Of a stretch of 38,727 bases of DNA, positions 6,519-7,252 are shown piece by piece. The stretch lies in UHGV virus genome UHGV-2005300, one strand, 5' to 3'. Every line of letters begins with the position of its first letter. The first letter of the stretch is position 1. The notes beneath the pieces were generated by a model. The model was not told the origin of the DNA, searched no databases, and saw only the letters and a list, made by a program, of their open reading frames with translations. Both the position numbers and the translations under genes were made by a program. The DNA is from a virus.

Positions 6519-6548
6519 CAAAAAAAACTGCCCTCACATTGGAGGGCA
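6519..6548 (-). terminator. Intrinsic terminator in the leftward early operon (tL-like)
   Basis: Minus-strand hairpin GCCCUC-caaugu-GAGGGC followed by U8. Confidence 0.55.
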
Positions 6549-6757
6549 AAGAAGATTTCCAATAATCAGAACAAGTCGGCTCCTGTTTAGTTACGAGCGA
6601 CATTGCTCCGTGTATTCACTCGTTGGAATGAATACACAGTGCAGTGTTTATTAGTATGCCTGTCTTTTAACCACATCAGGCTCGGTGGTTCTCGTGTACC
6701 CCTACAGCGAGAAAAATAGTAAAATCCTCTTACCCCTACAGTAAGAGAGTGATTTAT

Positions 6758-7252
6758 ATGTCTGATGAAAAAGGAATAATAAGTAGGATTACAGATGCAG
6801 TTTCTGGTGCCGGAGGTGCTCTGATGAGTGCTGTTGGCGCAGTAAAGGAAATCCAGAAAATGCAAATAGACTACTCAGTAAAAGAAAAAACATACGAACT
6901 TGTCGATAAGCTCATGGATGCCCAACAGCAGCAAATGTCACTTAATGAGCTTTTGATGATTTCTAAGGACAAGATTATTGAGCTTGAAGAAAAGATAAAT
7001 CGAGCCTCTAAGTGGGAAGAGGAAAAGAAAAACTATGAGATGTATACACCTACTGTTGCTACGGTGGTTTATCGTCTCAAAAAATCGGCAAATACCGGTC
7101 AGCCAATGCACTATCTTTGCGCTCAATGCTATGAATCTTCTGTGAAATCCATACTTCAATACGAAGGATTTGCACCACCTTCTAACCATAGGATGAGATG
7201 CCATAGGTGTAACGCCTCCTATCTGTTCCCTAAATCTGCATTTTCTAAATAA
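6758..7252 (+). CDS. Hypothetical protein (164 aa) on the opposite strand, in the sieB/ral position
   Basis: N-terminal Gly/Ala-rich hydrophobic stretch, central coiled coil, C-terminal CAQC...CHRC; AT-rich; 3' end overlaps the N stop convergently. Confidence 0.65.

Follow-up and report, generated by a model that had tools for sequence, protein, structure and literature searches.

A rightward gene beside antiterminator N of a lambdoid phage is very probably an allele of the anti-phage defence gene rip1

Using profile and structure searches, we found that a short rightward gene next to the antiterminator gene N of UHGV-2005300, a virus genome of 38,727 nucleotides that was analysed as a whole (the window), is very probably an allele of rip1, a single-gene anti-phage defence carried on lambdoid prophages. 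Both kinds of search had been proposed by a sequence-only reading of the same DNA, and both led to Rip1 in PDB entry 9OOX. That reading had named the gene its best candidate for an undescribed prophage-encoded exclusion or abortive-infection function, and its guess at the function was sound: in the summary given in a conference report, the near-identical Rip1 of phage HK446 is a prophage-encoded anti-phage protein (PMC12908700). Its claims of novelty did not survive. The product, which it could not place in a known family, is Rip1, and the family is covered by PHROG 1244. Nor is the function undescribed, as the Rip1 structure has been out since its release on 2026-02-04 and the related HkaP of phage HK620 was annotated as a “putative superinfection exclusion protein” in 2001. 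We conclude that this is very probably a true defence gene, whose function was rightly guessed and whose protein was already known. A reading of the raw sequence found what is very probably a genuine single-gene prophage defence from position, orientation, and protein architecture.

The identification is carried by sequence and by fold. A phmmer search against the PDB returned 9OOX, “ring interacting pore 1 (Rip1)” (E = 1.4e-105), and a 24-homologue profile matched the same entry as the single sequence did (E about 1e-105 in both cases). The entry is titled [quoted passage not shown] and it contains 12 Rip1 chains and 11 T6 small-terminase chains. Its Rip1 sequence is that of HK446 gp37, including H97, and the window protein is identical to gp37 at 163 of 164 residues, the one difference being Y97 in the window against H97 in HK446. 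The AlphaFold2 (AF2) model of the window protein (pLDDT 72.9) superposed on 9oox_M with a TM of 0.92 and an rmsd of 1.6 Å. This model and the conserved cysteines together give the window protein the Rip1 fold, in which a C-terminal beta domain with two CxxC pairs comes after a long helix. In phage HK446, to which the region is 99.8% identical, gp37 is labelled “hypothetical protein.”

Family and defence databases were less informative. A defence-system finder had also been recommended, and it did not pick up the gene: PADLOC-DB 2.0 gave no significant match for the 164-aa protein, and neither did Pfam-A or NCBIfam 20.0. PHROG 1244, which matches it at E = 4e-53, is described as “unknown function.” The gene deserves annotation as rip1, and it is still unknown or hypothetical in RefSeq, Pfam, NCBIfam, and PADLOC.

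Rip1 belongs to a large family. A full HMMER search returned 2964 cluster representatives at E ≤ 1e-3, of which 1388 passed E ≤ 1e-10, and most were 150 to 175 aa long; the resulting family size of ~3000 clusters is counted at 50% identity. Across 46 diverse members, Y93, C121, C124, C148, and C151 were invariant, and W86, L76, Y105, H118, and L133 were nearly so. The C-terminal CxxC...CxxC pair that had been noticed in the translation (C121-x2-C124 and C148-x2-C151) is thus an invariant feature of these 46 proteins. In the AF2 model, helices span residues 7-34 and 39-90, and the beta domain comes after them. The N-terminus had been described as Gly/Ala-rich and hydrophobic; the composition stands, while the hydrophobicity is moderate only, with a Kyte-Doolittle 19-residue maximum of 1.28. 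This value is below the usual hydropathy threshold, and the N-terminal helix does not qualify as a classical transmembrane segment. The AF2 model is also least confident there. In 9OOX, 126 of the 164 residues are modelled, and the roughly 38 absent residues probably correspond to this same Gly/Ala-rich helix.

The gene is not confined to one phage. Among 5426 complete E. coli genomes, 96 contain a match, always chromosomal and in all 96 cases at least 99% identical. The exact gene sequence of the window is present in at least 12 complete E. coli genomes, as a “hypothetical protein” in the records listed. Such exact and near-exact copies suggest that rip1 is being maintained, and they bear on whether the Y97 allele could be inactive, or could have a target range unlike that of the characterised H97 protein. 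We regard this as quite improbable. The two proteins do differ by a single substitution, which falls on a variable residue immediately ahead of the beta domain. However, position 97 is unconserved in the family, Y93 and all four cysteines are intact in the window protein, and the recurrence of the gene among E. coli genomes also speaks against an inactive allele. The phage that carries the Y97 protein is a mosaic different from HK446, and any single phage record covers at most 48% of the window's first 25 kb.

The coordinates of the gene and of the elements around it are collected in Table 1. The open frame (6749..7252, +) begins at a GTG, and we took ATG 6758 as the real start because the Shine-Dalgarno sequence TAAGAGAGTGAT lies ahead of it and because the 164-residue 9OOX chain matches over residues 3-164. 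Ten of the 12 bases of TAAGAGAGTGAT fit the extended Shine-Dalgarno sequence, and this ribosome-binding site is also kept in the rip1 loci of Serratia. There is, in addition, a perfect internal Shine-Dalgarno sequence, GGAGGTG (6812-6818), 5 nt ahead of an in-frame ATG at 6824 (M23). A start at M23 could yield a 142-aa Rip1 without most of the N-terminal helix, recalling the Esc product of sieB. SieB itself has hydrophobic membrane segments and starts its Esc product internally, and its self-immunity is provided by sas, an antisense RNA (PMC12197685). Most homologues have K at residue 23, so the M23 start may be a by-product of Gly-Gly codons.

Table 1. Features of the rip1 locus and its control elements, in window coordinates.
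Feature	Position	Strand	Description
rip1 coding sequence	6758..7252	+	164 aa plus stop; N-terminal Gly/Ala-rich helix, long central helix, C-terminal four-Cys zinc-ribbon beta domain
Ribosome-binding site TAAGAGAGTGAT	6742-6753	+	Read from the sequence; ends 4 nt ahead of ATG 6758
Antiterminator N gene	7245..7568	-	107 aa; Pfam N36, E 1.5e-26; convergent with rip1
Leftward intrinsic terminator, tL2A type	6518..6549	-	Stem GCCCTC/GAGGGC, then T8; HK620 annotation
sieB-type promoter (by alignment)	6695..6725	+	Aligned to P22 29690-29720; -10 TAAAAT at 6720-6725; -35 region is a poor consensus match
Predicted transcription start	6732 (A)	+	Aligned to P22 29727
Conserved stem GCCTG...CAGGC	6658..6681	.	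Upstream of the promoter; covaries to GCCGGG...CCCGGC in Serratia
ACCCCTACAG copy 1	6698..6707	+	-34 to -25 from the predicted start; covers the -35 region
ACCCCTACAG copy 2	6732..6741	+	+1 to +10; junction of the conserved promoter and the variable downstream gene
Imperfect inverted repeat	6600..6647	-	22-nt arms, perfect 13-bp hairpin; just upstream of the terminator in the leftward transcript

The sequence-only reading had described the setting of the gene accurately. Its 3' end overlaps the N stop convergently, by 8 bp (7245-7252), and it is the only plus-strand gene within the leftward early operon, being the sole such gene from integrase to N in the HK446 and RefSeq prophage annotations. 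A leftward intrinsic terminator (stem 6549-6528, T8 tail) separates it from the next leftward gene; the equivalent site carries the name tL2A in the HK620 annotation. The gene had also been called AT-rich, which is true to a mild degree (GC about 0.39-0.40 vs 0.42-0.55 in the flanks). The next leftward gene (6258-6506, -) encodes an 82-aa protein that matches PHROG 14587, “anti-restriction protein” (E = 5e-48), and no family for it was found in Pfam or NCBIfam. Since this gene occupies the position of lambda ral, defence and counter-defence genes stand back to back here.

Owing to the convergent overlap with N, pL transcription would run antisense through rip1 during lytic growth. The overlap, together with the binding of Rip1 to a packaging protein, could be taken to mean that the gene serves the phage's own lytic cycle, for example by influencing packaging or the timing of lysis via terminase binding, and that any anti-phage effect is secondary. 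Several observations make this extremely improbable. The gene points against the early operon, behind the promoter of the P22 and lambda exclusion gene sieB, and it is freely exchanged with sieB among otherwise similar phages, as would be the case for an accessory gene. The phage's own small terminase comes from an unrelated family with another ring size. Moreover, what the conference report says of Rip1 is that it acts in defence (PMC12908700). Anti-phage defence is the reading of rip1 that we retain.

The gene had been credited with a control region of its own, and this part of the earlier description has to be given up: the promoter is the sieB promoter that was mapped in P22 and is common to lambda. 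Positions 6657-6741 of the window align with the sieB upstream region of lambda, P22, and Salmonella phages at ~87% identity, and the core is identical. We took the P22 mapping from the curated record BK000583, which gives the sieB promoter as 29690-29720 and a “sieB RNA start site” at 29727. On the strength of this alignment, the promoter would also be used in the present phage, with a start near A6732. A simple sigma-70 consensus scan of the window does not flag it. Across 66 unique cassettes of this promoter, the -10 element was TAAAAT, TAAACT, TATAAT, or TAATAT only. Serratia homologues that are 45% identical to the window protein are likewise flanked by an N-like gene and the leftward early genes, with slot, orientation, and promoter unchanged. 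Separately, a Providencia prophage (3640-4000 of its stretch) encodes a Rip1 homologue 51-53% identical to the window protein, beside a cI-like repressor and with no N gene. The promoter of this Providencia gene is TGTGTATAAT, with an extended -10 and without the ACCCCTACAG repeats, and Rip1 cargo thus also moves independently of the cassette.

Two direct repeats had been pointed out upstream of the gene, and TACCCCTACAG is indeed found at 6697-6707 and 6731-6741. Within the window alone, the repeat is unremarkable: there are 3 matches with at most one mismatch where 0.93 are expected, and 8 of 100 shuffles reach that number. The comparison between phages is more telling. Both exact copies of ACCCCTACAG, at a spacing of 34 nt, are present in nine of nine loci from lambda, P22, HK620, HK446, E. 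coli, Salmonella, and Serratia, which had been chosen for other reasons, without conditioning on ACCCCTACAG. The 24 nt between the copies diverge among loci, as does the sequence beyond copy 2, and the Serratia prophages keep both copies though their Rip1 is only 45% identical and their upstream flank is otherwise different. Because the exact copies recur with the same spacing in all nine loci while their surroundings diverge, we consider the repeat real and under constraint.

Scanning IMG/VR for the double repeat yielded at least 120 loci, and ten other loci bring the set to at least 130 instances; the scan demanded that both repeats be exact, and its counts are thus uninformative on how frequently one copy is lost. 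The first ORF downstream of the cassette was SieB-like in 90 of 130 cases and Rip1/HkaP-like in 40 of 130, with nothing else among the matches listed. The Rip1-type proteins among the matches listed range from 27% to 100% identity with the window protein. Two aspects of these results may exceed what is published, namely that one promoter cassette is combined with two unrelated cargo families (SieB and Rip1/HkaP, among the matches listed) and that the ACCCCTACAG direct repeat is invariant across genera, in phages of Escherichia, Salmonella, and Serratia.

The observation that lambda and P22 carry exclusion genes at exactly this position was correct, as sieB lies there in both, in the same rightward orientation. 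With slot, orientation, and promoter all shared, and with SieB or Rip1/HkaP as the only cargo among the matches listed for at least 130 cassette copies, the gene could be imagined to be a functional equivalent of SieB, one that excludes superinfecting lambdoid or P22-like phages by the SieB mechanism and not by a terminase-triggered pore. We think this highly unlikely, since there is no sequence kinship between the proteins and the solved complex has the T6 small terminase as partner rather than a lambdoid protein. We rejected homology to SieB: BLASTP against lambda SieB gave an E of 9.4, and profile-profile comparison (hhalign) gave a probability of 3%. A terminase-triggered Rip1, placed behind a promoter that it shares with SieB, remains our preferred interpretation.

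The two ACCCCTACAG copies might be operator sites for a host or phage factor, which would make the N-adjacent defence slot a regulated cassette and not a constitutive one. We offer this idea tentatively and consider it rather unlikely. If true, the cassette could, for example, be switched off or enhanced at some defined stage so as to avoid self-abortion, and one switch would govern the unrelated SieB and Rip1 in phages of Escherichia, Salmonella, and Serratia. The motif TACCCCT resembles the NarL heptamer, TACYYMT. We do not rely on this resemblance, since the leading T of the second copy varies (A in lambda, C in P22 and Serratia).

Of the other structures that had been described upstream of the gene, the 9-bp inverted repeat (6610-6618/6629-6637) is present and makes up the core of a longer repeat whose arms (6600-6621/6626-6647) are 82% complementary. 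In the leftward RNA (6518-6655, -), the 13-bp hairpin and a second hairpin are followed by the tL2A-type terminator, with a fold z-score of -5.3. In HK620, Stx phages, and Salmonella phages, this block is conserved at 94-98% whichever gene follows it, and it may represent a processing site or a small RNA. The CTCTTA/TAAGAG hairpin likewise exists, at 6727-6747. As a regulatory RNA structure it was rejected: its 5' arm lies mostly upstream of the predicted start and reads TTGTCA in Serratia, and its 3' arm is the ribosome-binding site, so that the hairpin is probably incidental. An Rfam search over 6000-8100, with E up to 1, yielded nothing credible, and the upstream repeats fit no known RNA family.

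On the far side of N, we observed a GC-rich block of ~190 nt in the N leader (7585-7825), between the N start (7568) and the nutL boxB (about 7836-7852). It is flanked by a ~20-nt inverted repeat, CTTTGGTGGTGTGGTGG... / ...CCACCACACCCCAAAG, it lengthens the N leader by ~110 nt compared with lambda, and its leftward RNA folds strongly (z of -4.4). All 19 matching phage records have the block at 99% identity or more, with Sf6, HK446, HK633, HK544, mEp043, mEp213, and Sf101 among them at 100%. It had no Rfam match and is unannotated in nearly all of the records that contain it. A transposable-element origin was considered and rejected: 60 of the 5426 E. coli genomes contain the block, the median number of places per genome being one, and in the eight phage records where its location was examined (HK446, Sf6, HK633, HK544, mEp043, mEp213, Sf101, and vB_EcoP-720R6) the block falls within the immunity/N-gene region.

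Based on these results and the solved complex, we propose the following course of events. By alignment, rip1 would be transcribed rightward from the sieB-type promoter, against the repressed pL operon, and Rip1 would accordingly be expected in the lysogen. When a T-even-type phage infects, its small terminase ring would assemble and be capped by Rip1, twelve subunits on the 11-subunit ring of T6; this 12:11 complex is the one shown for the H97 protein of HK446 by the chain counts of 9OOX. Judging from the model, the long helix and the zinc-ribbon domain at the conserved C-terminus are the parts that probably bind the ring. Oligomerisation templated in this way would gather the N-terminal helices into a membrane pore, a step suggested by the name of the protein, by the conference summary, and by the Gly/Ala-rich and moderately hydrophobic nature of residues 7-34. 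With the infected cell probably killed or depolarised by the pore, the invading phage would not be produced.

As for self-tolerance, the resident small terminase probably does not trigger Rip1. This terminase (20152-20646) belongs to Pfam GP3_package, and its PDB match, 3P9A, has 9 chains. A P22 gp3-type nonamer is unrelated to T4/T6 gp16, so the carrier phage would be expected not to set off its own Rip1. The conference summary presents Rip1 as prophage-encoded protection against incoming phages (PMC12908700), and a 2026 preprint includes it with other defences in which the small terminase is what is sensed (bioRxiv 10.64898/2026.04.30.721860).

Among known systems, Rip1 of HK446 is the closest to the window gene. 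The two share their flanks (N on one side, the anti-restriction gene on the other), the promoter region, and the fold, and they differ at residue 97 and in the carrier phage, which is a different mosaic. HkaP of HK620 is of the same family (27% identity, E = 3e-13), falls in PHROG 1244 territory, has the same length of 164 aa and the same four cysteines, and is preceded by a promoter and upstream region 98% identical to that of the window. However, its sequence is highly diverged, and an extra gene, hkaQ, lies between the HkaP gene and N. SieB/Esc of P22 and lambda resembles Rip1 in its N-adjacent slot, its rightward direction, its promoter with both ACCCCTACAG copies, and its role in prophage-expressed exclusion, but the proteins are unrelated.

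Other systems are comparable in what they sense. TerI, of the TERi system of the Listeria prophage phi10403S, is also a small prophage protein that targets the terminase of the invader (bioRxiv 10.1101/2025.02.27.640495), and the 2026 preprint groups it with Rip1 as a defence directed at the small terminase (bioRxiv 10.64898/2026.04.30.721860). TerI prevents DNA packaging while the lytic cycle continues and requires two dedicated proteins for self-immunity, whereas Rip1 is proposed to form a pore. Avs1-3 (antiviral STAND NTPases) and HepS of Gifsy-1 resemble Rip1 in that they become active on directly recognising a late structural or packaging protein that is conserved. HepS is likewise prophage-encoded, and its carrier phage evades it by means of a non-triggering variant of the sensed protein. 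In these systems the effectors are large NTPases or HEPN nucleases, and what they sense is the large terminase or the tail tip; Rip1, in contrast, is a protein of 164 aa with no enzymatic domain, templated by an oligomeric ring.
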